Below, piece by piece: positions 26,539 to 54,492 of a DNA stretch of 64,000 nucleotides. Source of the DNA: an uncultured Staphylococcaceae bacterium (GTDB lineage Bacteria > Bacillota_I > Bacilli_A > RFN20 > CAG-826). Within the stretch, counting starts at the first letter, position 1; every line of letters starts with the position of its first letter. Both the position numbers and the translations under genes were made by a program. The DNA lies in assembly GCA_964371305.1 (NCBI GenBank), contig CAYJLA010000002.1:6236-70235 (forward strand), read 5' to 3'. Under the pieces are notes generated by a model that worked only from the letters and a program-made list of their open reading frames with translations, had not been told where the DNA came from and ran no database searches.

Positions 26539-27480
26539 ATGAAAAAAATTGTTGTGTTTGGATCATTTATTTATGACTTAGTTACTAGTATGAATCGTTT
26601 TCCAAAAGCTGGAGAATCCGTAATTGGAACGACATTTGAGTCTTTTCCTGGGGGGAAAGGTGCTAACCAGTGCATTGCAGTAAAAAGACTCGGTGGCAAC
26701 GTAGAAATGATTGGTAAAGTTGGAAACGATGAATATGGCAAAAAGTTTATTAATATATTTAAAGAAGAAGGTATTGATGTATCTTCAATAGAAGTTTCCC
26801 AAACAAAGTCTACAGGAGTTGGAAACATCCAATTAAATAAAAAAGGACAAAATAGAATATGCGTTATTTTAGGCGCTAACTTAGATTTCGATTCCGACAA
26901 TTTAGAAAAAAACAAGAAGATTATTGAGAATGCTGATTATTTCTTAACACAGTTTGAAATGGATATTGAAATAACAAATTGCGCAATTAAATATGCAAAA
27001 GAAAAAGGGTTAGTAGTAGTTGTTAATCCTGCACCAGCTAGAGAAATAGATGATGAAATAGTTCACTTAATTGACTATTTAACACCAAATGAAACTGAAT
27101 TGGAGTTCCTTTCTGGTATTAAAATCAATTCAATCGAAGACGCTGTGAATGGGTGCAATGTATTAATAAAAAAAGGTGTGAAGAATTTAGTAGTTACACT
27201 CGATAGCAAAGGATGTCTTTATGTTTCAAAAGAGAAATCATTTTTAGTTCCTGGATATAAAGTTGATAGAATAGATTCAGTAGGTGCAGGAGATTCTTTT
27301 AATGGCGCATTAGTTGTATCTCTAGCAAATGGAAAGAATATTGAAGAGTCTCTTAAGTTTGCAAATGCAATGGGGGCACTTACAGTAACTCAAAAAGGCG
27401 CAATACCATCATTGCAAAAAATTGATGTAGTTAATGAGTTTGTTTGCAATAATAAAAATCTAGAAATTAAATATTTATAA
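26539..27480 (+). CDS. rbsK: ribokinase (PfkB family sugar kinase)
   Basis: GGKGANQ and VGAGDSF motifs, 313 aa. Confidence 0.8.
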   Translation: MKKIVVFGSFIYDLVTSMNRFPKAGESVIGTTFESFPGGKGANQCIAVKRLGGNVEMIGKVGNDEYGKKFINIFKEEGIDVSSIEVSQTKSTGVGNIQLNKKGQNRICVILGANLDFDSDNLEKNKKIIENADYFLTQFEMDIEITNCAIKYAKEKGLVVVVNPAPAREIDDEIVHLIDYLTPNETELEFLSGIKINSIEDAVNGCNVLIKKGVKNLVVTLDSKGCLYVSKEKSFLVPGYKVDRIDSVGAGDSFNGALVVSLANGKNIEESLKFANAMGALTVTQKGAIPSLQKIDVVNEFVCNNKNLEIKYL

Positions 27481-27508
27481 AGAATTTTTGTAAATATATT
27501 TTCCGTTA

Positions 27509-27545
27509 TAGTTTTGTCTACCTTTATAGCAGTTTTGTCATATTT
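27509..27545 (+). promoter_or_regulatory. direct-repeat cis-element copy 1 (tAGTTTTGTC-N12-gcAGTTTTGTC), candidate response-regulator operator
   Basis: Near-identical copy at 53768..53804; related copies at 34440..34473, 44139..44154, 29141..29175, 26413..26444. Confidence 0.5.
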
Positions 27546-27610
27546 TTTTATGCAAATGCTACCAATATAATAAACATATAAGCGTTTACATGCAAAAATA
27601 AGGAGAAAAT

Positions 27611-29095
27611 ATGAAGAAAACAAAACTATTAGTTTGTAGTGCTTTAGTTGCATTACTCGGCGTCACAGTTTTTTCAAGCAGTGTTACAAATAAGAACGTT
27701 ATTGGAACGCATGCTGCTGTTAATTCATCATTTGTAGAAGGTGAAGATAGAAAATTAGATAGCTTAACAGGAAGAGAAAATTTAATTGATGAAACTTTAT
27801 TTGATTACCAAGCAATTGAAGGTGCACACACATGGCAAAATAAAGATGTATTGAGAGTCAATATGAGCAATATTGCAGCAACTCAAAGAATTTATGGTGT
27901 AGCACCTAAATTAAATAGAGTAGGTAGATTAGGTGTGCTTGCCATAGAACTCAAGAGTTCAAATGGAGTAACTTTGTCTGATTTAAATATTAAATACAAT
28001 CGTGGAACATCACCAACTTCATATACTAATGTTACATTAAATTTTGCAGATGCAGTTGATGGTAATGGTAATCCATTGCCTGAAATAACAAATCAATGGC
28101 AAACAATATATATCGATGCAGTTGATTCATTAGATGAAAGTTATTCTGACATTGCTTCATTCATTGGCGATGGAGGTGGTGGATACAGTGATTTCAGTAT
28201 TCTACCAACTCAAGGTACAACTGGAAATCTAGACATCAATTACATTTGGTATGAAATAGAACAAGGATTGGGTTATTACAGCACCGGTGATGTTTATCAA
28301 ATTGACAACTTTGATGGTAGAACAAGTGTTAGTGATGCAACAGGATCAAATGTTTATTGGAGAGATTCATGGGCTGGCGGTACTATCGCTCCTAATAGAG
28401 TTATTTTATACAATACATCTTACTCAGTAGCTTCTCTTACTAATGGTAACGCTGACAATAAATATGGTAACTTAGCAATTAATGCATTTATTGGTAGTAT
28501 TTCAGAAGTAACGCCAATTTATACAACAAACAATGTAGATTTCTTTGAAGGTACTGCTGTTGCGTGGGCTAATTTAAGAGATCATAATAATGTGGAATTA
28601 GGAAGTATTTCTACTTCAGGTTTTGCGACCAAAGTTATTAATTTTGCAAATAGTGGCATTGAATATAGTAATATGGTCGGCATAAAAATTACTGGTTCTA
28701 GCGGTGTAGCAATTAATGAAATTTATTTTACTGGAGAAAACACTGCGGCTAAAGGAATTAATGATTTAGTTGATTATTTATTGCTTGAAGACACAGATGG
28801 CCAATGTAACACAAAGTTCAATACAGCTAAAACAATGTACTTAGGATTAAGTGAAACCGATAAAACTACATTTACAACTGGAACTGATAGAATTGCAGAA
28901 GCCAGAGTTCGTTATGAAGCTTGGGCAACTCATTTAGGACAAAGTGCATACGATGCATCTGAAGTCTTATTAGGTGCACAAGGTGAAATGAATACTAATA
29001 ACATAATTGCGGCTATTTCAATAATTAGTTTGGTAGGTACTTCAAGCATAATATTATTTGTATTCTTGAATAAAAGAAAAACTGTAAAAAGATAA
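27611..29095 (+). CDS. secreted surface protein, paralogue family A, C-terminal TM anchor + KRKTVKR tail
   Basis: Sec signal peptide; shares EDRKLD, APKLN..G..GVL.I.L.S and IDNFDGRTSVS blocks with 29256..31226; C-terminal hydrophobic helix plus basic tail. Confidence 0.6.
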   Translation: MKKTKLLVCSALVALLGVTVFSSSVTNKNVIGTHAAVNSSFVEGEDRKLDSLTGRENLIDETLFDYQAIEGAHTWQNKDVLRVNMSNIAATQRIYGVAPKLNRVGRLGVLAIELKSSNGVTLSDLNIKYNRGTSPTSYTNVTLNFADAVDGNGNPLPEITNQWQTIYIDAVDSLDESYSDIASFIGDGGGGYSDFSILPTQGTTGNLDINYIWYEIEQGLGYYSTGDVYQIDNFDGRTSVSDATGSNVYWRDSWAGGTIAPNRVILYNTSYSVASLTNGNADNKYGNLAINAFIGSISEVTPIYTTNNVDFFEGTAVAWANLRDHNNVELGSISTSGFATKVINFANSGIEYSNMVGIKITGSSGVAINEIYFTGENTAAKGINDLVDYLLLEDTDGQCNTKFNTAKTMYLGLSETDKTTFTTGTDRIAEARVRYEAWATHLGQSAYDASEVLLGAQGEMNTNNIIAAISIISLVGTSSIILFVFLNKRKTVKR

Positions 29096-29103
29096 AATAG
29101 TTC

Positions 29104-29131
29104 AAAGGGCCGATTAGTTTCGGCCCTTTTT
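29104..29131 (+). terminator. rho-independent terminator GGGCCG-loop-CGGCCC + T5
   Basis: GC-rich 6-bp stem 29107-29112/29121-29126. Confidence 0.7.
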
Positions 29132-29255
29132 ATATTAATTTGCAGTTTATTATGCTATTAATGCAGTTTTATGCCATTTATACAAAAGGAAAAGATTGAT
29201 ACAATTTTATTATCGAACAATAGATAATGTTTTAAAATATAAAGGAAGGTAAAAT

Positions 29256-31226
29256 ATGAAGAAATTACTTGTAGGTTTAGGTCTTCTAGGTACATTAGTT
29301 ATTTCGGCAGTGAGTTTCCCTCTAGAAACAAATGCAGCTGGGAAAGAATTTGATGTAGATGAAGATAGGATGCTTGATGATTTCAAGCATGAAGTGCTTG
29401 AAGATACTTCACAGTTTAGTTTAGTTGATGCAACTGGAAACTATGATTACAATAGCGCTAGTTATTTAGATGTTAATATAAACAATAACAACAATACTGT
29501 TAACACAGCTATTTATAAAGCTGCCCCAAAATTAAACACAATGGGAAAAACAGGCGTATTGTCGATTACATTACGTAGTATTGATAGTAGTGTTTCACTG
29601 GCGGATTTAGATTTACATTATAGAGGTGCTAGTGATAAGGACAGCGACACTCTTGCAGTTAATCTTGCTGAAGCGCGTGACCAAGATAACGCAGCGCTAG
29701 ATGAAATTACAGCGAGTTGGACTACTATACACATATCCCCAATGAATTCAGTTGAAGATCAGGCTTATATAAATGGGTATGTTGGTTTGCACCTAGTCGC
29801 TAAACCTAATTTAATTGGCAAATTATCAATTAAAGAAATGTGGTATGCCGAACAGCAAGGAAGTCCATTCAATGCATCTAGTGGAGTTTATCCAATTGAT
29901 AATTTTTCTGGAAGAGAGACTGTTTCTCAAACAAATAGCGAATATCCAAATACATGGTGGAGATTTTCTCATACAGGTGTACTAGCCTCAAACGGCTTAA
30001 CACTTAATGGTGGTACTTATACGGTTGCAAGTGATTCACGTGGTAATGGCGATAATGCACACAGCAATATAGTATTAACGCTCAAAGGCGGTGAAATGGA
30101 TGAGATAAAATTCGTTTATGGTGATGTAACAAATGGATATACATATTCAAAACCATATGCATGGAATGAATTAAAAAATAATGCAGGATCTACATATCCT
30201 AGTATCACTACTCAAGAATTTTATGGTTATATAATTAATTTTGATGCTACTGGTATTGAATCAAACATTGCAGGCATAATGTTAACTGGAACAGGTGTTA
30301 CAATAAAAAGTATATTCTTCACAAGTGAAGCTCCATTAATTCCGGCTACAGAATTTCCTAGAATGAACGCTGATAGTAGGAGAGTGTTTGAAGATTTTAA
30401 TCGCGATATAGTTGGAGCAACAACAACATATATACCAAATACTCCTACAGCAACCGCAGGCGATTTATATTACATTTTATCTTATAGTGGAAGTGAATCT
30501 TTAGCTATGGAAGATAATGCATTAGTATTTGATGGAACAAAATCTCCAGGAACTACAATAAACTATAAATCAAGTGGTAGTCGAAATAATAATGGTACTT
30601 ATCCGTTTGTTGTTTTTAAGATGAAGGGTACTGATGGTGCTAGCTTGAAAAACTTTAGTTTTACAACAATTGATGATAGTGGTAATACAACTGAGCCAAA
30701 ACTATTTAATGAGTTATATAGTGATGTGCAATACAATATACCTGATTTTGACGCGATAGATTATCCATACACCACTTCAGATGGCTGGATGTATATAATC
30801 ATTAATCTAGAATATAGTGGATTCCCAGCAGGATGTCATGGTTTTGACTTCTATTACAGTGGCCCTGGTAAGCTTTATATAGATGAAACATTATATATGA
30901 CAAGAGCAACCGCTGCAGTTGAATACACTGATGTAGTAAGTAGTCTAGAGACACAAAGTGACGTAACTTTGCCAGAAATTGAATATAGTTTAGTTGATCA
31001 ATTGACTATTGGCGAAACTGTTGTAATTAATCCAACATTCACAGATGACATGACTAGTAGTGAAGAAATCACAACTGTCATAAAAGTCAAACATAATGGT
31101 GAATACATTGATTTGACTTCAGAAAATTCTTTTGTTGTTGAACAAGGTAGTTATATAATCATAATCATTGCGATCGATAATAACAATAATACAAATATCT
31201 TGAAACTTTATAGGGAGGTAGCATAA
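29256..31226 (+). CDS. secreted surface protein, paralogue family A (no C-terminal anchor)
   Basis: Signal peptide ...ETNA/AGK; conserved blocks shared with 27611 and 37153 proteins (DNFSGRETVS, EDFNRDIVG). Confidence 0.6.
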   Translation: MKKLLVGLGLLGTLVISAVSFPLETNAAGKEFDVDEDRMLDDFKHEVLEDTSQFSLVDATGNYDYNSASYLDVNINNNNNTVNTAIYKAAPKLNTMGKTGVLSITLRSIDSSVSLADLDLHYRGASDKDSDTLAVNLAEARDQDNAALDEITASWTTIHISPMNSVEDQAYINGYVGLHLVAKPNLIGKLSIKEMWYAEQQGSPFNASSGVYPIDNFSGRETVSQTNSEYPNTWWRFSHTGVLASNGLTLNGGTYTVASDSRGNGDNAHSNIVLTLKGGEMDEIKFVYGDVTNGYTYSKPYAWNELKNNAGSTYPSITTQEFYGYIINFDATGIESNIAGIMLTGTGVTIKSIFFTSEAPLIPATEFPRMNADSRRVFEDFNRDIVGATTTYIPNTPTATAGDLYYILSYSGSESLAMEDNALVFDGTKSPGTTINYKSSGSRNNNGTYPFVVFKMKGTDGASLKNFSFTTIDDSGNTTEPKLFNELYSDVQYNIPDFDAIDYPYTTSDGWMYIIINLEYSGFPAGCHGFDFYYSGPGKLYIDETLYMTRATAAVEYTDVVSSLETQSDVTLPEIEYSLVDQLTIGETVVINPTFTDDMTSSEEITTVIKVKHNGEYIDLTSENSFVVEQGSYIIIIIAIDNNNNTNILKLYREVA

Positions 31227-32533
31227 TGTTTAATATAAAATTAAGACATATAGCGCTTGCAAGTGCTTGTTTACTAATCACAAGTTGTACTTCAGTACCA
31301 ACTGATACAACTAATTCAAGTACTGTAAATCCAAGTGTTGATCCATCAACATCAACTACAGATGAAACTTCAACGCCTAGTGTAACTGACCCTAGTATTT
31401 CCATACCTAGCGTAACTGATCCTAGCACTCCTACTGAAGAAGGATTTAAGAATTTAGATGTTAATAATTATGGACAAATTAACTGGTTTGGAAGAACGTA
31501 TTCTGAAGGTGGAAAAGAATATTTCCATTATTCTAGTAGTGGGTTTGAAGTTAAATTTTATGGTACAAGACTAATTGCTACTATTGGCGCAACAGAACAT
31601 AACAGTGATAAAAATAGACCATACATTGCTGTTTTTATTGATGGAGAAGATGATCCACGAAAAGCAACTACAATTGCGCTTGATAAAGCAGAAGGCGATT
31701 ACATGATTGCTGAAAATTTAGAAGAAGGATTTCATACTATAAGAGTATTAAAAATAAGTGAATCACAATATAGTAAATGTTATTTGAAAAGTGTATCGAC
31801 TGATGGAGAATTTTATACTCCACCTGCCAAAAAAGAAAGAAAAATTGAAGTTTATGGTGCTTCAACCACATGTGGTTTTGGAGTGTTTGGTTTAACTGGT
31901 CCTGAAGCGTTTAGAACAGAAACTGAAAGCTCATTATTCTCATTTGCTGGATTAACTTCAAGAGTTTTTGATGCTGAATATAATTTAGTTAGTGCATCTG
32001 GTTGGGCGATTACACAAAATAAAGCATCTGATGGTGTTTCTATGTTAGATGCATACGATCAAGTAGATTTAAAAAATCCAATGCCTTGGGACTTTGATAG
32101 GTTTGTGCCTGATTTAGTAATGATTAATTTAGCTACTAATGATTCAGTATATATTGATGATGCACCAACCATTGAAGAACGTGAAGCAAGAGAAACAAGA
32201 TACTATAATGGATATATTCAATTCATTGAGAATTTAAGAGCAGCTTATGATAATCCTGAGTTACCTGTCTTAATGATATATGGATTCTTAGATGATCAAG
32301 GTGTAGAAGGGCCTATTAAAGATATAAAAGCTCATTATGCTGCAAAAGGTGACGCATACGTAGATTTTCAGAAAGTTTATAAAGCTAATGCAACTGATGG
32401 ATTTGGTAGCAGCTATCATGCCTCAGCGCTTACTCATATTAGATCAACAGATGTAGTTGTTCCAAAAGTGATTGAGTTAAAGGATAGAGAGTGGGATATA
32501 GTTCACGAGAACATAACAACTCCAAAACTATAA
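31226..32533 (+). CDS. SGNH/GDSL-type esterase lipoprotein with N-terminal beta-sandwich (CE2-like carbohydrate esterase, putative)
   Basis: LITSCTS lipobox, Ser/Thr/Pro linker, block I-like YGASTTCGFG, block III-like NLATNDS; assignment by motif resemblance only. Confidence 0.45.
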   Translation: MFNIKLRHIALASACLLITSCTSVPTDTTNSSTVNPSVDPSTSTTDETSTPSVTDPSISIPSVTDPSTPTEEGFKNLDVNNYGQINWFGRTYSEGGKEYFHYSSSGFEVKFYGTRLIATIGATEHNSDKNRPYIAVFIDGEDDPRKATTIALDKAEGDYMIAENLEEGFHTIRVLKISESQYSKCYLKSVSTDGEFYTPPAKKERKIEVYGASTTCGFGVFGLTGPEAFRTETESSLFSFAGLTSRVFDAEYNLVSASGWAITQNKASDGVSMLDAYDQVDLKNPMPWDFDRFVPDLVMINLATNDSVYIDDAPTIEEREARETRYYNGYIQFIENLRAAYDNPELPVLMIYGFLDDQGVEGPIKDIKAHYAAKGDAYVDFQKVYKANATDGFGSSYHASALTHIRSTDVVVPKVIELKDREWDIVHENITTPKL

Positions 32534-32547
32534 AGTTGTAATTTATT

Positions 32548-32573
32548 AAAGGCAGATTTTCTGCCTTTTTTTA
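32548..32573 (+). terminator. rho-independent terminator AGGCAG-loop-CTGCCT + T7
   Basis: stem 32550-32555/32561-32566. Confidence 0.7.
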
Positions 32574-32735
32574 TCTCTTTCGTAGCAAATGTATTTTAAT
32601 AATATATAACTACGAAATGCATTATTATTAGATTATAAATCAACAATGTTAGGAAATATAACGAAGTTGTTAGGTTAAACTGCATATGTGTTAACATTTG
32701 TTTACTATAGTAAACTTTGTTGTTAATCTAAGTTT

Positions 32736-34442
32736 ATGAAAAACATATATAAACTATTTATTCTCATGTCACTAGTATTAACGGGGTGTAATAGTGTCAC
32801 ACCAGATAATACTGTGTCAAATTCTATAGATCCAGCACCTAGCGAAGAAATAAGTGTTACAACGCCATCAACAACAGATAAGCCACAAATGAAACAGTCG
32901 TATTTAGAAACAATAAATGTTCCATCAGAGATTGAACTTCTTGAGGGAATCACTCTTGAAAGCAATGGCATGAATATACCTGTTATGAAAGTAATGGTTA
33001 ACGATTCTCATGTATTTGAATATCCTGAATCAACAAGAATTGAATCTGGGTACTCGATTGTGTCCTTAGAAGGCAAAGCTACTCTTACATATACATTTAA
33101 TTATGATGTCAATAACGATACAGTTGTATTACCTAGTGATTATAATATTGTGCCTACAGTTGAATCAAATAAAAAAACAGTAAGTTTTGAAATATTTGAC
33201 CCAGGCTATTATGTTATTCAACCAAATAATGATATTTATAAAGCTATACATTTATTTGTAGAGCAAAAAGTTCAAAAAACGACATTAGACTTTGATGATC
33301 CAAATTTAATCTATTTCGGACCAGGAGTTCACAATAAAGATAACTCGCCTTATATCAATGATAAAAACTTTATATCGGTCAAAAGTGGACAAACTATATA
33401 CTTGGATCATGGTTCATTCGTTCAAGGAAGAATACAAGGTTATCAGGTTAATAATGTTACAGTCACTGGTGGAGGTGTATTCGATGGAACACCTTTCAGT
33501 AGAGAAGATGTAATTGTTCCAGTTTCATTTTCAAAAAGTCATGATATTCTTGTTGAAAATATATACTTAATAGATCCAGCAGCCTGGACGCTTCAATATA
33601 ATTTTGTTTGGAATTCTTCAATCAAAAACGTAGCCATTATTTCAAGTAGAGCAAATGGAGATGGCGTAACTTTGCAATCATGTGAGAATATAACTGTTGA
33701 TAATGTATTTGCAAGAGGTTATGACGACAACTTAGTCGTCAAAAATTACGCTTTTCCTTATGGAAATACTGATCCAAATAGTGTTGGGCATTCAAACAAT
33801 ATAACTTTTACAAATTGTGTTCTGTGGACTGACCTAGCTCAGTCAATAGAAATAGGCTATGAAACTTTAGGTGAAGAACTTAGTTATATTACTTTCGATA
33901 ATATCATTATATTAGCTGCTAATCACAAACCAGCAATTTCTATTCACAATGGTAATAGTGCTTTAGTGCATGATATTATATTCAAGAACATAACAGTTGA
34001 GTTTGCAAACATGGGAATGGGAGATGGTGCATACAATAAGGAATTGATAGATTTTAGTTCAATTTATTCAGCGGCATTTTCTGACAAGGCTCAAGGACCG
34101 ACTAAAGTCGGTAATATAGAAGGAGTTCTTGTTGAAAACGTTTTAGTTAAGGAAGTAAGAGAAAATTTAAATATTGAAATTAAACTTTACGGACAAAAAG
34201 ATACAAGAGAAGATTTCAAGGGCATTGTTTCAACTGTAACTGATATCGAATTTAAAGACATCACAATCAAAAATGAAAAATTGACGCTTGGAACGGCAAA
34301 TATTAATGCAAATCAGTATGCAAGTAATTATCGTTTTAGTAATAGCGATAATGAATCCACAGGAAGCTTGATTATATACGAAATCTCTAAAGAAGATCTT
34401 TTGAATTACACAAGCGAAGCAATAGTTAGTATTTTTAAGTAG
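32736..34442 (+). CDS. right-handed beta-helix (pectin-lyase-fold) glycoside-hydrolase-like lipoprotein
   Basis: LVLTGCN lipobox; NVTVTGGGVFDG, RANGDGVTLQSCENITVDN, GYDDNLVVK rungs reminiscent of GH28/GH49/GH87 beta-helix enzymes; family not assignable. Confidence 0.5.
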   Translation: MKNIYKLFILMSLVLTGCNSVTPDNTVSNSIDPAPSEEISVTTPSTTDKPQMKQSYLETINVPSEIELLEGITLESNGMNIPVMKVMVNDSHVFEYPESTRIESGYSIVSLEGKATLTYTFNYDVNNDTVVLPSDYNIVPTVESNKKTVSFEIFDPGYYVIQPNNDIYKAIHLFVEQKVQKTTLDFDDPNLIYFGPGVHNKDNSPYINDKNFISVKSGQTIYLDHGSFVQGRIQGYQVNNVTVTGGGVFDGTPFSREDVIVPVSFSKSHDILVENIYLIDPAAWTLQYNFVWNSSIKNVAIISSRANGDGVTLQSCENITVDNVFARGYDDNLVVKNYAFPYGNTDPNSVGHSNNITFTNCVLWTDLAQSIEIGYETLGEELSYITFDNIIILAANHKPAISIHNGNSALVHDIIFKNITVEFANMGMGDGAYNKELIDFSSIYSAAFSDKAQGPTKVGNIEGVLVENVLVKEVRENLNIEIKLYGQKDTREDFKGIVSTVTDIEFKDITIKNEKLTLGTANINANQYASNYRFSNSDNESTGSLIIYEISKEDLLNYTSEAIVSIFK

Positions 34443-34473
34443 AATAATCTACCTTAATTGCAGTTTTATCAAC
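34440..34473 (+). promoter_or_regulatory. direct-repeat cis-element copy 3 (ATCTACCTT-AATTGCAGTTTTATCAAC)
   Basis: Aligns with 27509..27545 and 53768..53804 copies; immediately upstream of 34523 gene. Confidence 0.45.
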
Positions 34474-34522
34474 TTATGGTTATTTACTAAATATGAGAAA
34501 ATTAAAATGTGAAGGAGTTTTT

Positions 34523-44092: not shown

Positions 44093-44138
44093 TGAGTTGA
44101 ATATTGAATACTGTTTAAATAGAGCATGAATAAATAAA

Positions 44139-45637: not shown

Positions 45638-45649
45638 AAAGGAAATATA

Positions 45650-46609: not shown

Positions 46610-47532
46610 TGAAAATGTATAACAAATTATTGAGTAAGTTCAAGAACAAAGATAAAGAAACATTATTAACCAAAAAAGGTGGCGTTTTAACTTTTATTGA
46701 TTATAAACGTCCACTTAATAAATTTATATATATAATCATGATACTTATTCTTGTTAGTGTCGCTTTAACAGCGTTACTTCCAATATTTATATTACTTCTA
46801 TCTTCTTATAAAGGTCCGTCAGAGTTATATGCAATACCTTTTAATTTATTTCCACAAGCTTTTGATATAACAAAAATGTTTACTGTTTGGCAGGAAGTTC
46901 AATTTGAAAAGTATTTGTTCAATACTTTAATCGTTTGTTTTGGAGCTGCATTCGTTGGCGTAATAGTAAATGGATTGCTTGCATATTCAGTATCTGTGGT
47001 AAAGCCATGGGGACATAAATTTTTCTACATTTTAATTATGGCTTCGTATATGATACCTGGCATACTTTCAATTGTGCCATTGTATTCATCAATAGTTAAC
47101 TTATCGCTTACAAATACATATATACCTTTATGGTTTGTAATGGGAGCAAATGCATTTTATTTTATATTATTTAAAAATCATTTTGATTCAATTCCGGGTG
47201 CTCTTATAGAAGCTGCAAGGGTTGATGGTGCTAGTAACATAAGAATATTTTTTAGTGTAATTATTCCAATGTCTAAATCTATTATGTTACTTGTTGCAAT
47301 TTTTTCAATTACAACTGCCTGGAATGATTTCTTGCTGCCATATTTAGTACTACAAGATTCGAATATGCAAACAATTATGGTGTTGCTATATCAAAAATCT
47401 GGTGATGCACAATTTTCACCAGATAAATTATTAATGTTATCACTTATCTCAATTATACCTCAAATAATTATCTTTTTTGTGTTTCAAAAACAGATAGTAG
47501 GTAGTGCAATGAGTAGTGGTTTAAAGGAGTAA
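46609..47532 (+). CDS. carbohydrate ABC transporter permease (MalG/UgpE-like)
   Basis: 6 TM, EAARVDGAS EAA motif. Confidence 0.8.
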   Translation: MKMYNKLLSKFKNKDKETLLTKKGGVLTFIDYKRPLNKFIYIIMILILVSVALTALLPIFILLLSSYKGPSELYAIPFNLFPQAFDITKMFTVWQEVQFEKYLFNTLIVCFGAAFVGVIVNGLLAYSVSVVKPWGHKFFYILIMASYMIPGILSIVPLYSSIVNLSLTNTYIPLWFVMGANAFYFILFKNHFDSIPGALIEAARVDGASNIRIFFSVIIPMSKSIMLLVAIFSITTAWNDFLLPYLVLQDSNMQTIMVLLYQKSGDAQFSPDKLLMLSLISIIPQIIIFFVFQKQIVGSAMSSGLKE

Positions 47533-47536
47533 AATT

Positions 47537-49795
47537 ATGGGCAAAATTGCAACAAAATATTTAAAGGTTCACCCTTATAAAATTATTGAAGAAGGTTTTC
47601 ATGAAGAAAGAAATAGAGTGAGTGAGTCCTTGTTCTCACTAAGTAATGAATTCATGGGAATAAGAGGGAGTTTTGATGAAGGCAGCAGTTTGAAAACTTT
47701 ACGAGGAAGTTATTTTAATGGTATATACGACTACCCTTTAACGCCATCTCAAAAATCATATAAAGGGATTGTTGAAAAGACACATTTTATGGTTAACTCA
47801 GTAGACTATTTTAAAGTAAAGATACTAGCTAATGATGAAGTATTAGATTTAGGAAAAATAAATTTTGAAAACTTCTATAGAGAGCTCGATTTATTAAGCG
47901 GTTTATTGACTAGAAAGTTAACTTGGATTTTGCTAAATGGAACAAAGATCGATATTAAGTTCGAAAGATTTCTATCTTTAAAAAAATGTCATAGCGCATT
48001 TCAAAGAATAAGCTTGGTTTCAGATAAAAAAGTCGATATTTGCATTGATTTTTATCTTGATAGCAATGTTCTTCATTGGGGAAAAGATGTGTATCATACA
48101 ATGATTTCAAGCGAAAACACTTGTAAAATGATGTCTTTAAAAACAATGACTAAAACATCAAAACAAACTATCGTTTCATCATGTAAAATTGATACAAATA
48201 TAAATGTACATGAATTGGTTAATGAGGATTTATTGGTTGGTAAAAGATATAAGTTTACTCTTGAAAAAAACGAGCAGATATTTACAAGGTATGTCTCCAA
48301 TTATGTCGCTAGAAATGAAGAAGAATTATTGGTAAATATAGATTCATTAGCTATCAAGAATTTAAATGAAATTTCAAAGTCTGGTTTCGAAGAAGAATTA
48401 AATAACAATATAAAATATTTCGCTAATTTATATGAGCGTTCAGACATTGTCATTGAAGGTGATGATGAAGATCAACAAGGAGTTAGATATTGTATTTTTA
48501 TGCTTGAAACCACATATCATGGTTTTAATGAACTAGACAACATAGGTGCTAAAGGTTTGACGGGAGAAGCATATAGTGGTCATTGTTTTTGGGACTCTGA
48601 AGCGGTATGTTTCCCATATTATTTATTCAACAACAAAAAAGCGGCAAAGAACCTTTTAATGTTTAGGTATAATACTCTTGAAAAAGCTAAAGAGAGAGCA
48701 AAGCAACTTGATTGCGGCGGTGCATGTTATCCTATTGCAACATTAAATGGCGAAGAAGCATGTAATTTATGGCAACATGCATCAACTCAGTTTCAACCTA
48801 CAACTGCTGTGGCATATGCTATATACCATTATATGAATACAACGAAAGATAAAGCTTTTTTAAGAAACTATGGCCTTGAAATGTTATTAGAATGTTCAAA
48901 GTTTTTATTAGATAGAGGTCAATGGGATCAAAAAGGTACATCGTTTGGGTTTTATGGGGTAATGGGACCAGATGAATTTAAAGTAATGGTTAATCACAAT
49001 ACATATACAAATTATATGGCTCAATTTACTTTTCAATATACTTTGAAATGCATTAATAGATCTTCCTTAAAGGATAGTCTATTAAAAAAATGTGGCTTAG
49101 ATGCGAACTTCTTAGATAAAATATCAAAAGCTGCGAAAAGCATGAAAATATTATTTAATTCTAGGACGGGATTATATGAGCAAAATGAAGGTTTTTACAA
49201 TTTACCTCATATTGATATTCATGCAATTCCGCAAACTGATTTCCCACTATATTCTAATTGGAGTTATGACAGAATTTATCGTGGTGATATGATTAAACAA
49301 CCAGATGTTTTGATGTTTATGTTTTTATTCATGTCTAAGTTTTCAGATAAAGTAAAATTAGCTAATTACGATTACTACGAACCAAGATGCATACATGAAT
49401 CTTCACTATCTCCATGTATTCACTCAATATTTGCGTGCGACTTAAAAAAAGAAAATGAAGCCCTAGATTTCTTTGGATTTGCATCTAGATTAGATTTAGA
49501 TGATTATAATAGAAATACAAATGAAGGATTACATCTAACTTCTATATCAGGCGCATGGCTTAATATAGTGTATGGATTTGGCGGTCTTAGAAGTGACTCT
49601 GGAATAGTTTCAATTAACCCATCACTTCCAGCAAGATGGGACTCATATTCATTTAAATTTGTGTATAAAAGAGCTAAAATAACAGTCAAAGTAACTAAAC
49701 ATAAACTTTATATTTCGAATAATGGACAAGATGAATACATTTATATAGATGGCAAAAAGCTTTTAATTACTAAATATGTTGAAATAGATAGATAA
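47537..49795 (+). CDS. glycoside hydrolase family 65 disaccharide phosphorylase (maltose/kojibiose/nigerose/trehalose phosphorylase family)
   Basis: 752 aa; GH65 central-domain blocks incl. GEAYSGHCFWDSE; architecture N-domain + (alpha/alpha)6 barrel + C-domain. Confidence 0.8.
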   Translation: MGKIATKYLKVHPYKIIEEGFHEERNRVSESLFSLSNEFMGIRGSFDEGSSLKTLRGSYFNGIYDYPLTPSQKSYKGIVEKTHFMVNSVDYFKVKILANDEVLDLGKINFENFYRELDLLSGLLTRKLTWILLNGTKIDIKFERFLSLKKCHSAFQRISLVSDKKVDICIDFYLDSNVLHWGKDVYHTMISSENTCKMMSLKTMTKTSKQTIVSSCKIDTNINVHELVNEDLLVGKRYKFTLEKNEQIFTRYVSNYVARNEEELLVNIDSLAIKNLNEISKSGFEEELNNNIKYFANLYERSDIVIEGDDEDQQGVRYCIFMLETTYHGFNELDNIGAKGLTGEAYSGHCFWDSEAVCFPYYLFNNKKAAKNLLMFRYNTLEKAKERAKQLDCGGACYPIATLNGEEACNLWQHASTQFQPTTAVAYAIYHYMNTTKDKAFLRNYGLEMLLECSKFLLDRGQWDQKGTSFGFYGVMGPDEFKVMVNHNTYTNYMAQFTFQYTLKCINRSSLKDSLLKKCGLDANFLDKISKAAKSMKILFNSRTGLYEQNEGFYNLPHIDIHAIPQTDFPLYSNWSYDRIYRGDMIKQPDVLMFMFLFMSKFSDKVKLANYDYYEPRCIHESSLSPCIHSIFACDLKKENEALDFFGFASRLDLDDYNRNTNEGLHLTSISGAWLNIVYGFGGLRSDSGIVSINPSLPARWDSYSFKFVYKRAKITVKVTKHKLYISNNGQDEYIYIDGKKLLITKYVEIDR

Positions 49796-49801
49796 GTATT
49801 T

Positions 49802-51874
49802 ATGAAATTGATAAAGTTTGATTTTGATAAAGAAAAAATAAATTCTTATGGGAATATGTTTTTGATTGGAAATGGTCATATCGGCTATCGTGGTACTTTA
49901 GAGGAGTATCGTGCTAGCGAGTTTGTAGGTCTAAATATTGTTGGTCAATATGATCAATACGAAGATAAATGGAGAGAGTCTCTGAACGCCTTTAATCCTT
50001 TCTTTGTACATGTTAAAGGGGATCGATCTTTTTCAGTTCTTGAAAATAAACCTACTAACCATTGTATTGAACTAGATATCAAAAAAGCACTCTTTTCAAG
50101 ATTTAGTGAATATGATGAATTGATTATAACTTCCAAAAGGTTCGTTTCGCATAATAACCTGGATACTTTATGTATGATTTACACTGTTAAGGCTAAGACA
50201 TCTATCAGTTTAAAAGTTACTTTTGGCATAGATGAAAATGTATGGGACATAAATGGACCGCATTATAAATCAATTGAGCATGGTAGGAATGAAAACAAAT
50301 TAACAATTACAGGAATAAGCAATGAAGGAAAGTATATTAAAACAATTGCCGCATATAAATCAAATAAACCATTTAGGTATAAAAACGGTCTATTTGAAGT
50401 TGATACACAATTAAATAGAGATGAAGAAATCACTATAGAAGTGTGTTCACAAATTATCATCGGAGAAGAACAAAATAGACAAATCACATGCTATGATGAT
50501 GAGTTTGATGCGCATCATAAAATCATGGATAAAAAATGGGAAAACTGCGAAGTGGTAATTGATGGAGATGAAGAAAGTAGAAAATCTTTAGCGTATAGTA
50601 TTTATCACCTAATCATACTTGGAAACAATGAATATACTACGTCTATACCAGCAAGAGGTTTGTCGGGACAAACATATAAAGGTGCAATATTTTGGGATAC
50701 TGAAGTGTTTATGTTACCATTTTTTATACTGACAGATGTAAATATTGCGAAAAAACTAGTTCAATACAGAATAAATACTCTTCCAGGTGCATTAAGAAAG
50801 GCTAAAAGATTTAATTGTGATGGAGCCTTCTATGCCTGGGAATCTCAAGAAACAGGCGATGAAGCCTGCAGTTTGTATAATGTAAGTGATGCTATAAGTG
50901 GAAAACCTATTAGAACATACTTTGCAGATAAGCAAATTCATATATCAGGCGATGTTTCTTTTGGTATTATTCGTTATATTGAGGCTACTGGAGATTATAA
51001 CATTTTGTATGAGGGTGGTTTTGAAACACTCATTCAAATAACAAAGTTCTTTATCAATTATAGTGTATTTAATTCTCAAAAAGACAGATATGAAATACAC
51101 GACGTTATTGGTCCAGATGAATATCATGAAAGAGTAAATAATAACGCTTTTACAAATTACCTTGTTTACTTTACAACAAAGAAGATAATTGATTATGCTT
51201 CTTTACTCGAAGGAGACTATGTAAACAAAATCCTTAGTAAATGCGATTTAAATATAAATGCAGTTGAAAATTATGTTAATAAACTATATTTACCTCAGCC
51301 AAACAATGATAATGTAATTGAACAATTTGATGGCTATTTTGCATTAGAAGATGCCACTGTAAAAGAAGTAAGAAGTAGATTGAAAAACGAAAAGGAATAC
51401 TGGGGCGGAGAAAATGGCGTCGCCACTAAGACAAGAATAATAAAACAAGCAGACGTTATTGCGCTTATGGGAATGTTTCCGGAAGAATTCTCATACGAAG
51501 AATTAAAGGCGAACTACGACTTTTATGAACCATATACTGAACACGGATCTAGTCTTTCAGCATCTATGCATTCGTTGGTGGCGTGTAAAATTGGATATTT
51601 CGATGAAGCATATAAAATGTTTTTAAAATCTGCAACAGTTGACTTAGGCGAAAATCAAAAACAGTGGGCTGGAAGCATATACATTGGTGGCACACACCCT
51701 GCTAGCAATGGTGGTAGTTACTTATCTATTGTATATGGTTTTCTCGGAGTTAGGATAAATAGTAATAAGGTTACATTTGACCCACACTTACCTGATAATT
51801 TTAATGCTATTACATATTCTTATGTTGAGAATAACGTAAAAAAGACCCTAAAATTTATAAACAATAAACAATAA
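49802..51874 (+). CDS. glycoside hydrolase family 65 phosphorylase (second paralogue)
   Basis: 690 aa; GLSGQTYKGAIFWDTEVF block homologous to upstream GH65. Confidence 0.8.
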   Translation: MKLIKFDFDKEKINSYGNMFLIGNGHIGYRGTLEEYRASEFVGLNIVGQYDQYEDKWRESLNAFNPFFVHVKGDRSFSVLENKPTNHCIELDIKKALFSRFSEYDELIITSKRFVSHNNLDTLCMIYTVKAKTSISLKVTFGIDENVWDINGPHYKSIEHGRNENKLTITGISNEGKYIKTIAAYKSNKPFRYKNGLFEVDTQLNRDEEITIEVCSQIIIGEEQNRQITCYDDEFDAHHKIMDKKWENCEVVIDGDEESRKSLAYSIYHLIILGNNEYTTSIPARGLSGQTYKGAIFWDTEVFMLPFFILTDVNIAKKLVQYRINTLPGALRKAKRFNCDGAFYAWESQETGDEACSLYNVSDAISGKPIRTYFADKQIHISGDVSFGIIRYIEATGDYNILYEGGFETLIQITKFFINYSVFNSQKDRYEIHDVIGPDEYHERVNNNAFTNYLVYFTTKKIIDYASLLEGDYVNKILSKCDLNINAVENYVNKLYLPQPNNDNVIEQFDGYFALEDATVKEVRSRLKNEKEYWGGENGVATKTRIIKQADVIALMGMFPEEFSYEELKANYDFYEPYTEHGSSLSASMHSLVACKIGYFDEAYKMFLKSATVDLGENQKQWAGSIYIGGTHPASNGGSYLSIVYGFLGVRINSNKVTFDPHLPDNFNAITYSYVENNVKKTLKFINNKQ

Positions 51875-51895
51875 TAGAAAAAAACTAATAAGTTA

Positions 51896-52567
51896 TTAGT
51901 CTTTATTTTTCTTTGCTAGCGAAAGTTTTTCAATTATTTCAGGATCGTCCGATACATAATCAATATATGAAAATGCTAATCCGCCAATAAAATTGCCAAC
52001 TAGTGATAGACCTAATAAATATAGACCTTCAGGAGTAAAAAATTCGCCAGTAACAGCTAAATAAAAACTTGAAGCAACTACATGGTCAAATCCACATATT
52101 GCAAAAACCATTATAATTATGACAATTAATAAAACGTTATTTTTGAATTTCTTCATTTTTGATAGTGCACCAATTAATACGCCGCACATGATACCCATAG
52201 TAATTATTCCATACCAATCATCCGCAAATCTTTTATCTAAAACTGCAGAAAAGACACTTTCTAGCTCTGTGTGTAATCGTGTAGTCATCATGAAATAACC
52301 AAGCAAAAGACATCCAACAGCATTACCAAGGCAAACAAGTAAACATCTCCAAGTATATTCAAAAAAACTAAAATTTTCTCTTTGTTTAGGAACAAAACTT
52401 GTAAACAGATACAAATCATATTCGATAATAATCAAAATACCTACACTAAATAGTGCATATGCTACAACATCGTTTATGTTGTATGTTGCACCAAAAGCCA
52501 ATGCTCCTAGCCCAATACCTATACCGCCTAAAATACTTTTACTAATAAATTTTATCATTTTGTTCAC
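51896..52567 (-). CDS. small polytopic membrane protein, formate/nitrite-transporter-like (putative)
   Basis: 223 aa, 6 TM, CGFDHVVASS resembles FNT GFEHS(I/V)AN motif; tentative. Confidence 0.35.
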   Translation of the reverse strand: MNKMIKFISKSILGGIGIGLGALAFGATYNINDVVAYALFSVGILIIIEYDLYLFTSFVPKQRENFSFFEYTWRCLLVCLGNAVGCLLLGYFMMTTRLHTELESVFSAVLDKRFADDWYGIITMGIMCGVLIGALSKMKKFKNNVLLIVIIIMVFAICGFDHVVASSFYLAVTGEFFTPEGLYLLGLSLVGNFIGGLAFSYIDYVSDDPEIIEKLSLAKKNKD

Positions 52568-52740
52568 TCATTTCACTTTATAGAAACGTATATTATTATA
52601 ATAATATATTTTGTTATTATCAATAGCTTAATTATCAATTTTACTTTATCGATATAGTCGAAAGTATATGTATATTGATTGAAAAAATAATAATTTAATT
52701 TAAAATTAAAGTAGTCATTTATATTGAAGAGGGAACAAAT

Positions 52741-53715
52741 ATGGAAATACGAAGGAGCGTAGGGCTTAAAGAAATTGCTGCAGAATTAAACATAAGTATA
52801 AATGCAGTATCCAGAGCGTTGAGAGATTGTAGTGATATTTCTGAAAGCACTAAACAAAAAGTAAGGAATGCAGCTATTGAATTAGGTTATGTACCAAATG
52901 CAGTAGCTCAATCATTACGAAATGGCAAGTCAAAACAAATAGGTTTTGTAACAGACACTGTACTTAACCCATTTTTACCGGTGATGTCTGATATCATTTT
53001 GAACAAACTGGAAGAAATTGATTATGGTGGTGTTATTATACCTAATAAAACCGGATTTGATCGTAGCGTAATTGCAAAATGCATATCGCAAAGATTAGAT
53101 GCGATTGTAGCATTTGTTAAGCCTACTCCAGATACAATTGAGTGTGCTAGATTAAACAATTTAAAGATTGTATTTCTTGGAAAATGTGATGAACCTGACG
53201 TTGTAAAATGCGTTTACTTAGATACAATAAAAGGCGGTAGATTAGCAGGAGAACATTTTGTAAAAAATGGACATAAAAATCTTATATATGTATCATTAAA
53301 TGGCGCTGTTGGAAGTAAAAGAAGACAGGAAGGTATTGAAGGATTTGTTGAAACTTTCAATAGTCGTAATGGAGAGCAAATTAAGTTGGAAATTGTTAAG
53401 TTTGAAGAGATGGAAACTAGAGTTCCGGAATTGATAAAGCAAGGTTTTACTGGTATACATACACATAGTGATACAATTGGACTTATACTTGAAAAACATC
53501 TATCTAAATTAGGTTTAAAAGACGGAGTCATGATTATTGGTATTGATGGTGTAGGAAGACATTTATCAATTTGCGAAAAAATTAATTCTATTGTTGGAGA
53601 TTTTAATGAAGGTGGCGAAAAAGTTATAGAAAAACTCAAGTTAATTTTCAACGGCAAAGCTGATGAAGTTGGAGATACAATAATTGACGTAAACTTGATT
53701 TTAGAAGATCAATAG
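52741..53715 (+). CDS. LacI family transcriptional regulator
   Basis: N-terminal HTH LKEIAAELNISINAVSRALRD + periplasmic-binding-protein-like sugar-binding core. Confidence 0.75.
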   Translation: MEIRRSVGLKEIAAELNISINAVSRALRDCSDISESTKQKVRNAAIELGYVPNAVAQSLRNGKSKQIGFVTDTVLNPFLPVMSDIILNKLEEIDYGGVIIPNKTGFDRSVIAKCISQRLDAIVAFVKPTPDTIECARLNNLKIVFLGKCDEPDVVKCVYLDTIKGGRLAGEHFVKNGHKNLIYVSLNGAVGSKRRQEGIEGFVETFNSRNGEQIKLEIVKFEEMETRVPELIKQGFTGIHTHSDTIGLILEKHLSKLGLKDGVMIIGIDGVGRHLSICEKINSIVGDFNEGGEKVIEKLKLIFNGKADEVGDTIIDVNLILEDQ

Positions 53716-53730
53716 AAAGAAATTTAACTA

Positions 53731-53752
53731 AAGGTGCAGAAGCACCTTTTTT
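53731..53752 (+). terminator. rho-independent terminator AAGGTGC-agaa-GCACCTT + T-run
   Basis: 7-bp stem, tetraloop. Confidence 0.7.
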
Positions 53753-53767
53753 AATTTTTATAAATAG

Positions 53768-53804
53768 TAGTTTTATCTACCTTTATAGCTGTTTTGTCAT
53801 ATTT
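53768..53804 (+). promoter_or_regulatory. direct-repeat cis-element copy 2 (tAGTTTTATC-N12-gcTGTTTTGTC)
   Basis: 34/37 identical to 27509..27545; upstream of beta-phosphoglucomutase gene. Confidence 0.5.
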
Positions 53805-53865
53805 ATAATTTTAGCAAATTCATTATAATATTTTATGTATTAATTTATCAAATGAGGAGAAAATA

Positions 53866-54492
53866 ATGAAAGCATTTATATTTGATTTAGATGGTGTGTT
53901 GGTTCACACAGATAATTTGCATTACTTAGCATGGAAAGAAATTGCTGATAAACAAGGAATTGAGTTCAATGAAGAAATAAATAATCTACTTAGAGGTGTT
54001 TCTAGAATGGAGAGTTTAGAAATTATTCTTAGAAAAAGTGATAAAAAGTATTCTCAAGAAGAAAAAAATCAACTTGCAGAAGAAAAAAACAACGTATACA
54101 AGAAATATTTAGAAACTATGTCTCCTAACGATCTTGACTCCGGAGTCTTAGACTCATTAAATATTTTAAAGGAAAAAGGCTACATTCTTGCGATTGGTAG
54201 TTCAAGCAAGAACGCCGTTACTATATTGGATAAACTCGGCATCAAGGCAATGTTTGATGTCATTAGTGATGGAAATAATATTAGAAATTCAAAACCAGAT
54301 CCTGAAGTGTTCCTTTATGCAGCCACTAAACTAGGTCTTAGTCCTGAAGAATGCTACGTTGTTGAAGATGCTGTTGCAGGCGTTACCGCAGGAGTCAACG
54401 GCGGCTTTAAAGTAATAACGATTAATGATGCCTACAGCGATGATAGAGCAACATATAGACTAAAAACCTTTAATGAAATTGTCAATATTTAG
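53866..54492 (+). CDS. pgmB: beta-phosphoglucomutase (HAD superfamily)
   Basis: FIFDLDGVLVHTD motif I, HAD motifs; genomic context with GH65 phosphorylases. Confidence 0.7.
   Translation: MKAFIFDLDGVLVHTDNLHYLAWKEIADKQGIEFNEEINNLLRGVSRMESLEIILRKSDKKYSQEEKNQLAEEKNNVYKKYLETMSPNDLDSGVLDSLNILKEKGYILAIGSSSKNAVTILDKLGIKAMFDVISDGNNIRNSKPDPEVFLYAATKLGLSPEECYVVEDAVAGVTAGVNGGFKVITINDAYSDDRATYRLKTFNEIVNI

Follow-up and report, generated by a model that had tools for sequence, protein, structure and literature searches.

The locus and its genes

A stretch of 64,000 nucleotides from contig CAYJLA010000002.1 of an uncultured Staphylococcaceae bacterium (assembly GCA_964371305.1; hereafter the window, to which all positions refer) carries at 26539–54492 a locus with two tandem phosphorylases of glycoside hydrolase family 65 (GH65-1 and GH65-2). 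It is argued below that this locus rather probably serves to harvest alpha-1,3-linked glucan of the mutan or pseudonigeran type by cleavage at the cell surface, import of the products and intracellular phosphorolysis. Alpha-1,3-glucan is a major constituent of fungal walls and dental plaque, and the bacterial alpha-1,3-glucan depolymerases known to us belong to GH87. The question addressed is from where the GH65 phosphorylases of anaerobic gut and soil Firmicutes obtain their nigero-oligosaccharides. The locus and its relatives point to one enzyme family as the likely missing depolymerase and to one protein family as the likely surface binder.

The G+C content of the window is low (about 0.28–0.35), and the locus is a nearly unbroken series of long plus-strand open reading frames (ORFs). 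In the following list CBM stands for carbohydrate-binding module and CE2 for carbohydrate esterase family 2.

26539–27480, plus strand: ribokinase of the PfkB family (TIGR02152, 335 bits versus a cutoff of 300)
27611–29095, plus strand: SurfA (494 aa), secreted, with signal peptide and a hydrophobic tail visible in the sequence as C-terminal membrane anchor
29256–31226, plus strand: SurfB (656 aa), secreted and paralogous to SurfA and SurfC
31226–32533, plus strand: CE2 carbohydrate esterase lipoprotein (Pfam CE2_N, 1.3e-15, and GDSL; lipobox LITSC)
32736–34442, plus strand: beta-helix glycosidase-like lipoprotein 1 (568 aa), clan GH-N, GH28-like, no CBM (lipobox LTGC)
34493–37126, plus strand: beta-helix glycosidase-like lipoprotein 2 (877 aa; 867 aa from the second Met), with N-terminal beta-sandwich, beta-helix and two discoidin/CBM32-like domains
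37153–40062, plus strand: SurfC (969 aa), with signal peptide, CBM-like beta-sandwiches, further repeats and an Ig-like domain, anchored in the membrane at its C-terminus
40167–41381, plus strand: YesN-like response regulator with AraC-type helix-turn-helix (Pfam Response_reg, 2e-23; HTH_18, 2.3e-19)
41371–43104, plus strand: YesM-like membrane histidine kinase (Pfam His_kinase PF06580, 5.1e-25; HATPase_c, 7.2e-12)
43082–44092, minus strand: Cache-like membrane protein (336 aa; weak dCache_1 match, E 7e-4)
44225–45637, plus strand: ABC solute-binding lipoprotein (Pfam SBP_bac_8, 1.4e-20; lipobox)
45650–46609 and 46609–47532, plus strand: two ABC permeases (Pfam BPD_transp_1 in both)
47537–49795, plus strand: GH65-1 (752 aa), with three GH65 Pfam domains (catalytic domain 1e-107)
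49802–51874, plus strand: GH65-2 (690 aa), with GH65 N-terminal and catalytic Pfam domains (catalytic domain 4.6e-95)
51896–52567, minus strand: membrane protein of the formate/nitrite-transporter family (Pfam Form_Nir_trans, 7.7e-23)
52741–53715, plus strand: LacI-family repressor (Pfam LacI and Peripla_BP_1)
53866–54492, plus strand: beta-phosphoglucomutase, beta-PGM (TIGR01990, 232.6 bits versus a cutoff of 189.4)

An initial annotation, made by a model from the sequence alone, had listed a run of same-strand genes from the ribokinase to beta-PGM. The listed genes exist as long plus-strand ORFs and the family scans agree with them, but two minus-strand genes (43082–44092 and 51896–52567) lie within the run. 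The three secreted surface proteins of that list are likewise present but not consecutive, the order being ribokinase, SurfA, SurfB, esterase, the two beta-helix genes and then SurfC. Lipoboxes can be recognized in the sequences of the esterase, of both beta-helix proteins and of the solute-binding protein. Within the locus there are no genes for an ABC ATPase, for uronate, rhamnose or arabinose pathways, or for an intracellular glycosidase other than the GH65 pair. Terminator-like hairpins 3′ of SurfA (29104–29129), CE2, SurfC and LacI (53730–53749) suggest that the locus comprises several transcription units. A promoter scan of the locus was uninformative and gave fewer matches than shuffled sequence. 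The closest relatives of the locus genes are found in Clostridium sp. CAG:288, Coprobacillus sp. CAG:826 and metagenome-assembled genomes (MAGs) of Bacilli.

The GH65 phosphorylase pair

Both GH65 proteins retain the residues required for phosphorolysis. In GH65-1 the motifs GPDEF (with the catalytic Glu), HESSLSP and GLHLTS align to LbMP (1H54), and in GH65-2 the motifs GPDEYHE (with the Glu mutated as E475Q in 4KTR), HGSSLS and GGTHPASNG align to BsGGP and CsKP. Because the catalytic Glu and the phosphate-binding Ser-Ser/His are kept in both, the two proteins are taken to be phosphorylases and not GH65 hydrolases; the initial annotation had staked its reading in part on these residues. The C-terminal Pfam domain was not detected in GH65-2, which stops about 55–70 residues early. 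Enzymes of this nigerose phosphorylase type are 683–691 aa long in this lineage (window 49802–51874; related locus L001 from 20962; L085 from 20660) and lack these residues when compared with the orthologue from Lachnoclostridium (Clostridium) phytofermentans, which has 762 aa, and with BsGGP (769 aa). Since the shortening is conserved in the lineage, it is not an assembly artefact.

The most informative relatives are two tandem GH65 proteins in a syntenic locus of L. phytofermentans KNHs2131 (L039), to which GH65-1 is 50% identical over 735 aa and GH65-2 41% over 718 aa. KNHs2131 is a sister strain of ISDg, and its proteins are the presumed orthologues of the assayed Cphy_3314 and Cphy_3313, which have been characterized as alpha-1,3-oligoglucan phosphorylase and nigerose phosphorylase, respectively (Nihira et al., 2014, as cited in PMC11442529 and PMC8950772). 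The short specificity loop, loop 3, of GH65-1 equals that of the L. phytofermentans orthologue in length and nearly matches it in sequence (YPIATLNGEEACNLWQHAS versus YPIATISGKECCSLWQHAS). The long loop 3 of GH65-2 is also of equal length and about 70% identical to that of its L. phytofermentans orthologue. This agrees with the division described in a review of GH65: alpha-1,3-oligoglucan phosphorylases have short loops like those of maltose phosphorylase, and nigerose phosphorylases have long loops like those of the glucosylglycerol enzyme together with a W-E-F motif (PMC11442529). GH65-2 indeed has W-E at the positions of CsKP 391–392 and F at that of 417, and GH65-1 has Ala at the position of CsKP 392, as in the motif FAITQA of ChGP, the characterized oligoglucan phosphorylase from Caldicellulosiruptor. 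GH65-1 is about 45% and GH65-2 33% identical to ChGP, values from a frameshift-tolerant alignment to DNA damaged by optical character recognition, of which the 45% is rough and probably a low estimate. The pairing itself is documented: in such tandems the oligoglucan phosphorylase trims chains of at least three residues to nigerose, which is then split by the nigerose phosphorylase (PMC11442529).

From the syntenic L. phytofermentans pair and the shared loop-3 signatures, the sugar is therefore narrowed to alpha-1,3-linked glucose. GH65-1 is predicted to be an alpha-1,3-oligoglucan phosphorylase (EC 2.4.1.334 type) and GH65-2 a nigerose phosphorylase (EC 2.4.1.279 type). Together with beta-PGM the pair very probably forms a closed intracellular route from nigero-oligosaccharides to glucose and glucose-6-phosphate. 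The initial annotation had left open maltose, kojibiose, nigerose and trehalose as disaccharides and alpha-1,3- or alpha-1,2-glucan as polymer. The comparison with characterized phosphorylases that it suggested, made here through presumed orthologues and a rough ChGP sequence, shows a pair resembling oligoglucan and nigerose phosphorylases. Nigerose and alpha-1,3 linkage are thus retained, but alpha-1,2 (kojibiose), alpha-1,4 (maltose) and trehalose substrates are not favoured by loop 3 and synteny.

Two other assignments suggested by the closest solved structures were considered and rejected. The closest structure to GH65-2 is glucosylglycerol phosphorylase from Bacillus selenitireducens (4KTP; BsGGP, 32% identity). 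GH65-2 lacks the glycerol-binding Phe residues; at the positions of the glucosylglycerol-specific Phe395 and Phe396 it has N and V. It also has W-E and not W-I, and it is nearer to the nigerose phosphorylase orthologue. The closest structure to GH65-1 is 6W0P (52% identity), followed by maltose phosphorylase. 6W0P is labelled kojibiose phosphorylase, but it has the same short oligoglucan-type loop 3 (FPVATRNGKEACNLWQHAS), so that the label does not carry over to GH65-1. As an aside, 6W0P is 62% identical to the GH65-1 orthologue in L001 and is without the W-E...T kojibiose motif; its name in the Protein Data Bank is, as judged from these features, probably wrong. No paper mentioning 6W0P was found, and it is omitted from the GH65 review (PMC11442529).

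In one related locus (L087; GCA_949740485.1, CATJIG010000226.1) both beta-helix genes and a SurfC-type gene are accompanied by a single GH65 gene (766 aa) before beta-PGM. This phosphorylase may cover both phosphorolysis steps.

The beta-helix proteins

The 568-aa and 877-aa proteins are paralogues (31% identity, E 3e-62). At the sequence level they are GH28-like: the 877-aa protein scores 41.8–44.6 bits with the Pfam GH28 model (cutoff 22.9; partial model coverage) and the 568-aa protein 21.5 bits, just below the cutoff. The match spans only about 80–150 residues. With the NCBIfam GH28 equivalogs for polygalacturonase and rhamnogalacturonidase the scores are 21–49 bits against cutoffs of 500–800, and the Pfam GH49 models gave no match even at E values up to 10. 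By these scans, which are of a kind proposed in the initial annotation, the proteins resemble GH28 in part of their sequence and do not match the GH49 models. Of the two discoidin domains claimed for the larger protein, the C-terminal one is clear and alone passes the Pfam thresholds, but the first is weak (E 0.008).

The fold was examined in an AlphaFold model of a 521-residue N-terminal fragment of the 877-aa protein (predicted local distance difference test, pLDDT, 92), which shows a beta-sandwich followed by a right-handed beta-helix. In Foldseek searches with this fragment GH49 isopullulanase and dextranases came first (E 4e-16 to 7e-14, template modelling score about 0.6), followed by GH28 (9e-10) and GH87 (1e-5). 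A profile of the family matched the catalytic coils of the GH28 enzyme 3JUR (4.9e-13), the N-domain and first coils of GH49 isopullulanase (3.5e-8) and GH49 dextranase (6.8e-6); there was no profile match to GH87. Residues N267-G-D269-G and D290-D291 (counted along the modelled fragment, whose first residue is number 40 of the 877-aa ORF) align to NNDG and GDD of 3JUR and thus correspond to the Asp triad of clan GH-N. The triad is invariant across the family (alignments of 49 and of 12 sequences), and NGDG and DD are kept in the 568-aa protein. The carboxylate-binding motifs GHG and RIK of GH28 were not found at the expected positions upon sequence inspection. By profile, model and triad the family is best placed in clan GH-N, between GH28 and GH49, and the proteins can accordingly still be read as glycosidases, as was proposed initially. 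The resemblance to GH49 that had been noted from the architecture holds at the level of the whole fold; that to GH87 does not, and GH87 is rejected as the family of these proteins. Homologues are abundant, with more than 1,500 clusters (about 50% identity level, E ≤ 0.001, metagenomes) in MAGs of Bacilli, Clostridia and Haloplasmataceae. In the literature searched no activity was found reported for these GH28-annotated, GH49-shaped enzymes, nor for the Surf proteins.

The nearness to GH49 raises the possibility that the substrate is a mixed-linkage alpha-glucan such as alternan, nigeran, isolichenan or an alpha-1,3-branched dextran, in which the beta-helix enzymes would cut alpha-1,6 or alpha-1,4 bonds and the GH65 pair would trim alpha-1,3-linked glucose from non-reducing ends. 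This would fit a fold nearest to GH49 dextranase and isopullulanase, a profile that matches the GH49 N-domain, and the finding that oligoglucan phosphorylases of the GH65-1 clade elongate maltose, kojibiose and, in the case of MiGP, isomaltose as acceptors in vitro. The GH49 models of Pfam, however, are unmatched, and neither the locus nor its compact relatives encode an alpha-1,6- or alpha-1,4-glucosidase or phosphorylase to finish the products, whereas two phosphorylases and beta-PGM fully catabolize only pure alpha-1,3 chains. We consider a mixed-linkage substrate unlikely, although not negligibly so.

Conserved linkage in related loci

A GH65-1 alignment, run against genomes sampled once per species, picked up 80 GH65-anchored loci from named genomes, in which partners were counted by tblastn of all locus proteins. 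A GH65-2-type gene adjoins in 69 of the 80, both ABC permeases are present in 74 and beta-PGM in 64. A beta-helix gene lies within 10 kb in 31 of the 80 loci, and in 22 of the 42 that have full flanks. With the 10-kb limit too few are counted: in the window itself 10.4 kb separate the end of the beta-helix gene from GH65-1 downstream of it, and a Peloplasma gene truncated at the edge of the flank has a discoidin domain as its last part. The loci that bear beta-helix genes come from Bacilli MAGs, Lachnospiraceae (Kineothrix, Anaerocolumna, Herbinix, Mobilitalea), Eubacterium album, Acholeplasmataceae and an Anaerolineaceae MAG. Among cultured organisms the complete module is present in L. phytofermentans ISDg, Kineothrix alysoides, Eubacterium album and Anaerocolumna sp. 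AGMB13025. When loci were fetched in the opposite direction, via homologues of the beta-helix proteins, the same gene order was found in six of six (of the numbered loci, L015 is the same contig as L003). The shared order is a gene for a beta-helix enzyme with F5/8C domains, a SurfC-type gene (830–900 aa), importer, one or two GH65 genes and beta-PGM; the two-component system and the minus-strand Cache-like gene are optional after the SurfC-type gene. In L085 only a gene of 142 aa is called at the SurfC-type position. Paired beta-helix genes occur also in L004 and L087. Where the locus is compact, as in L001, no candidate depolymerase other than the beta-helix enzyme is encoded.

Since the beta-helix gene is linked in these loci to those of the ABC importer and the GH65 enzymes, we infer that its product is a candidate extracellular alpha-1,3-glucan depolymerase, an assignment that in our estimation has an even chance of being correct. 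With regulators, a transporter, extracellular and intracellular enzymes and linkage across 87 related loci, the locus has, as far as can be read from the DNA, the attributes of a Gram-positive polysaccharide utilization locus; the initial annotation had called it one acting on an alpha-glucan, and gene content and conserved linkage support this.

Conserved linkage also bears on a simpler explanation, namely that GH28 pectinases or rhamnogalacturonases with binding proteins of their own stand by chance beside an unrelated operon for nigerose or kojibiose salvage. That the only sequence-level matches are to Pfam GH28 and to the NCBIfam polygalacturonase and rhamnogalacturonidase models would fit this, as would the hairpins that split the span into several transcription units. 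The gene for the GH28-like beta-helix protein in L039 is the orthologue of Cphy_3310, with the same N-terminal anchor and following motifs. Boutard et al. (2014), who relied on CAZy, assign Cphy_3310 to GH28 (PMC4230839). Purified Cphy3310 was essentially inactive on 14 plant polysaccharides, among which alpha-1,3-glucan was not included (PMC4230839, Table S11). Its activity was 17.4 ± 1.9 nmol/mg/min on homogalacturonan and 2.1 on rhamnogalacturonan I (RG-I), compared with 175–463 for pectate lyases and true pectinases in the same table. The trace of activity on homogalacturonan was raised by an esterase, which would again fit a pectinase, but it is below the lowest activity class of that paper (PMC4230839). 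Moreover, Cphy3309, 3310, 3313 and 3314 fall into one cluster of co-expressed genes (PMC4230839, supplementary tables), the NCBIfam scores are far under their cutoffs (e.g., 47 versus 600 bits), and genes of uronate catabolism are absent from the locus. Two findings contradict juxtaposition by chance, which we regard as very improbable: the synteny is conserved across Bacilli, Lachnospiraceae, Acholeplasmataceae and Anaerolineaceae, and Cphy3310 was essentially inactive in the published assays. The pectinase label of Cphy_3310-type proteins is likely a mis-annotation.

Surface proteins and accessory genes

SurfA and SurfB are 34% identical over 347 aa (E 2e-42), and SurfB and SurfC 24% over 613 aa (E 2e-16). 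No Pfam or NCBIfam family was assigned to any of the three, the only match being a sub-threshold one to DUF7908. The model of SurfC (pLDDT 92.7) contains at least three CBM-like beta-sandwiches, and its domains match carbohydrate-binding modules. From the model, SurfA-C appear to be proteins of tandem CBM-like beta-sandwiches, and SurfC is a candidate surface glycan-binding protein. The family is small and fast-evolving: word-indexed searches with SurfC gave only two proteins, and an exhaustive phmmer search of 1.84 billion proteins was needed to find its 110 divergent representatives. In five loci of Peloplasma and Acholeplasmataceae (L046, L047, L051, L059, L061) the discoidin-bearing gene is followed by one for a protein of about 1,160 aa with Listeria-Bacteroides repeats, which shares only the third SurfC domain (SurfC residues 356–548, 29–34% identity). 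This domain may be a conserved functional module. In the same five loci the permeases occur in fused form, together with an ABC ATPase gene.

The esterase has C. thermocellum CtCE2 (2WAO) as its closest solved relative (E 3e-23), and the Ser-His dyad is aligned with that of CtCE2 (GASTTC versus GDSITC for Ser, YHAS versus WHPS for His). CE2 enzymes deacetylate hexopyranosides such as glucomannan with a preference for O-6. An acetylated glucan is therefore conceivable as substrate, which is a speculative extension. For the ribokinase, the CE2 esterase and the formate/nitrite-transporter gene no counterpart was found in the 84 related loci compared. As core parts of the system these three lineage-specific additions are doubtful. 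The ribokinase, which had been counted among the locus members, adjoins the locus but probably lies outside the system. The formate/nitrite-transporter gene between GH65-2 and LacI is probably an insertion unrelated to it.

The esterase is nevertheless one reason to consider a substrate that is not a glucan, i.e., a heteroglycan or glycoconjugate with alpha-1,3-linked glucose (an acetylated exopolysaccharide, glucosylated wall polymers or a plant wall component), of which the beta-helix enzymes would cut the backbone and the GH65 enzymes would take the terminal glucose. The GH28-type catalytic coils could be accommodated in this way, and so could the finding that expression of the L. phytofermentans cluster rises on cellulose, debranched sugar-beet arabinan and corn stover (about 4- to 10-fold by reads per kilobase per million; 23- to 42-fold by DESeq on arabinan; PMC4230839). 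CE2, however, is absent from all related loci compared, genes for handling uronate, rhamnose or arabinose are lacking in the compact relatives as in the locus itself, loop 3 of GH65-2 matches that of the nigerose phosphorylase orthologue, and the assays of Cphy3310 gave no meaningful activity on arabinan, RG-I or the rest of the polysaccharides (PMC4230839). Such a substrate appears quite improbable to us. Both it and a mixed-linkage glucan are weakened because there is no enzyme to finish such products.

Four further genes of the neighbourhood should be mentioned. A PP2C-like phosphatase gene (54482–55366, minus strand) shares 11 nt with the end of the beta-PGM gene, and the locus is flanked by ORFs at 24435–26270 (minus strand, 611 aa) and 55367–56407 (minus strand, 346 aa) without a Pfam family. 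About 22 kb upstream of the locus, amid housekeeping genes, a 567-aa protein encoded at 3225–4928 (plus strand) matches the Cthe_2159 beta-helix carbohydrate-binding domain (Pfam, 6.2e-46).

Import and regulation

For the solute-binding protein no close solved relative was found. Its counterparts (34–59% identity) adjoin the GH65 pair in most related loci, and its ligand is predicted to be nigero-oligosaccharides. The response regulator gene is conserved in L003, L004 and L086, and the LacI gene is found also in L001, L039, L047, L085 and L087. The 336-aa minus-strand protein has two transmembrane segments, and its gene is convergent with the kinase gene, whose 3′ end it overlaps by 23 nt. A minus-strand gene for a protein of 322–333 aa stands at the matching position in L003, L004 and L086; by tblastn, 26–34% identity to the 336-aa protein was found in L004, L006 and L028. 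Compared with the sensor half of the kinase the 336-aa protein showed no significant similarity. Possibly this Cache-like protein acts with the two-component system as a third, sensor-like part.

Proposed pathway

The functions assigned above can be combined as follows. The polymer would be derived, e.g., from fungal walls or bacterial biofilms and would be held at the surface by SurfA-C and by the discoidin/CBM32 domains of the larger beta-helix enzyme. After a possible removal of O-acetyl groups by the CE2 esterase, a step found only in this lineage, the two membrane-tethered beta-helix glycosidases would cut the polymer to nigero-oligosaccharides by inverting hydrolysis via the Asp triad. 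The oligosaccharides would be imported by the binding lipoprotein and the two permeases, presumably with a shared ATPase encoded elsewhere. In the cell, GH65-1 would release beta-glucose-1-phosphate from chains of at least three residues until nigerose is left, GH65-2 would convert nigerose to glucose and beta-glucose-1-phosphate, and beta-PGM would convert beta-glucose-1-phosphate to glucose-6-phosphate. Expression would be controlled by the AraC-type two-component system, possibly with the Cache-like membrane protein, and by the LacI repressor.

Several points weigh against growth on alpha-1,3-glucan as proposed here. In the literature searched, cleavage of an alpha-glucan by a member of this beta-helix subfamily has not been reported, and Pfam and CAZy place the family in the pectin-active GH28. 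The identity of the GH65 proteins to characterized phosphorylases is just 41–50%, and in view of the varied disaccharide acceptors of the GH65-1 clade the imported oligosaccharide need not be a pure alpha-1,3 chain. About half of the loci with a GH65 pair have no beta-helix gene within 10 kb, and the Enterococcus loci, which consist only of importer, GH65 pair and beta-PGM, look like oligosaccharide-only scavengers. We know of no role of a CE2 esterase on alpha-1,3-glucan, nor is any of cellulose, debranched arabinan and corn stover known to us to contain this polymer. The induction of the L. phytofermentans cluster on these substrates may reflect derepression at slow growth, a contaminant or, contrary to our proposal, a plant-derived substrate. 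Because growth on arabinan was very poor (optical density 0.149; PMC4230839), the induction was maybe derepression and not a specific response.

A more general prediction, which we put forward tentatively and to which we would give slightly less than an even chance, is that the beta-helix family is an uncharacterized class of endo-alpha-1,3-glucanases in clan GH-N and SurfA-C new alpha-1,3-glucan-binding modules, forming with the phosphorylases a widespread route in reduced-genome gut Bacilli, Lachnospiraceae and Acholeplasmataceae. If this is true, the family would bring alpha-glucan activity to GH28 for the first time or be the starting point of a new family, and feeding on fungal or biofilm alpha-1,3-glucan would be widespread.

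Comparison with known systems

The nearest known system is the cluster Cphy_3309-3314 of L. phytofermentans ISDg, which together with its ABC transporter comprises the core gene set common to the window locus. In L039 the order is binding protein, two permeases, GH65, GH65, LacI, beta-PGM, GH28-like beta-helix protein and F5/8C protein, which matches Cphy_3314, 3313, 3312, 3311, 3310 and 3309 of ISDg. Beside the 50 and 41% of GH65-1 and GH65-2, the identities between the window locus and L039 are 49% for beta-PGM and 38% for the beta-helix enzyme. Beyond the genes of Cphy_3309-3314 the window locus has a second beta-helix paralogue, three CBM-like proteins, the CE2 esterase, the inserted formate/nitrite-type transporter and the AraC-type two-component system with its Cache-like partner. 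It differs also in that its beta-helix enzymes are lipoproteins, that discoidin domains are fused to the enzyme and that GH65-2 is shorter C-terminally by about 70 residues.

A second cluster of L. phytofermentans, Cphy_1873-1877, encodes a GH87 endo-alpha-1,3-glucanase with CBM35/CBM6, the nigerose phosphorylase Cphy_1874, a GH31 alpha-1,3-glucosidase, an ABC transporter and LacI (PMC9061262). Its logic is shared by the window locus: a beta-helix alpha-1,3-glucanase (in the window a candidate) with CBMs, an ABC importer, GH65 and LacI.

Compared with GH49 dextranase and isopullulanase (1OGM/1OGO, 6NZS, 1WMR/3WWG), the catalytic coils of the window enzymes align better to GH28, and the gene context points to alpha-1,3 products and not to alpha-1,6 or alpha-1,4 products. 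Compared with the GH28 polygalacturonases and rhamnogalacturonases (3JUR, 1BHE, 5OLP), the match extends over a limited stretch and the orthologue is without pectinase activity. The Surf proteins are likened by fold, although without a sequence family, to the surface glycan-binding proteins of polysaccharide utilization loci and to Gram-positive multi-CBM proteins. The core of the locus, homologous to Cphy_3309-3314 with phosphorylases characterized in 2014, is thus the known part, and the predictions for the beta-helix and Surf families are the new part.

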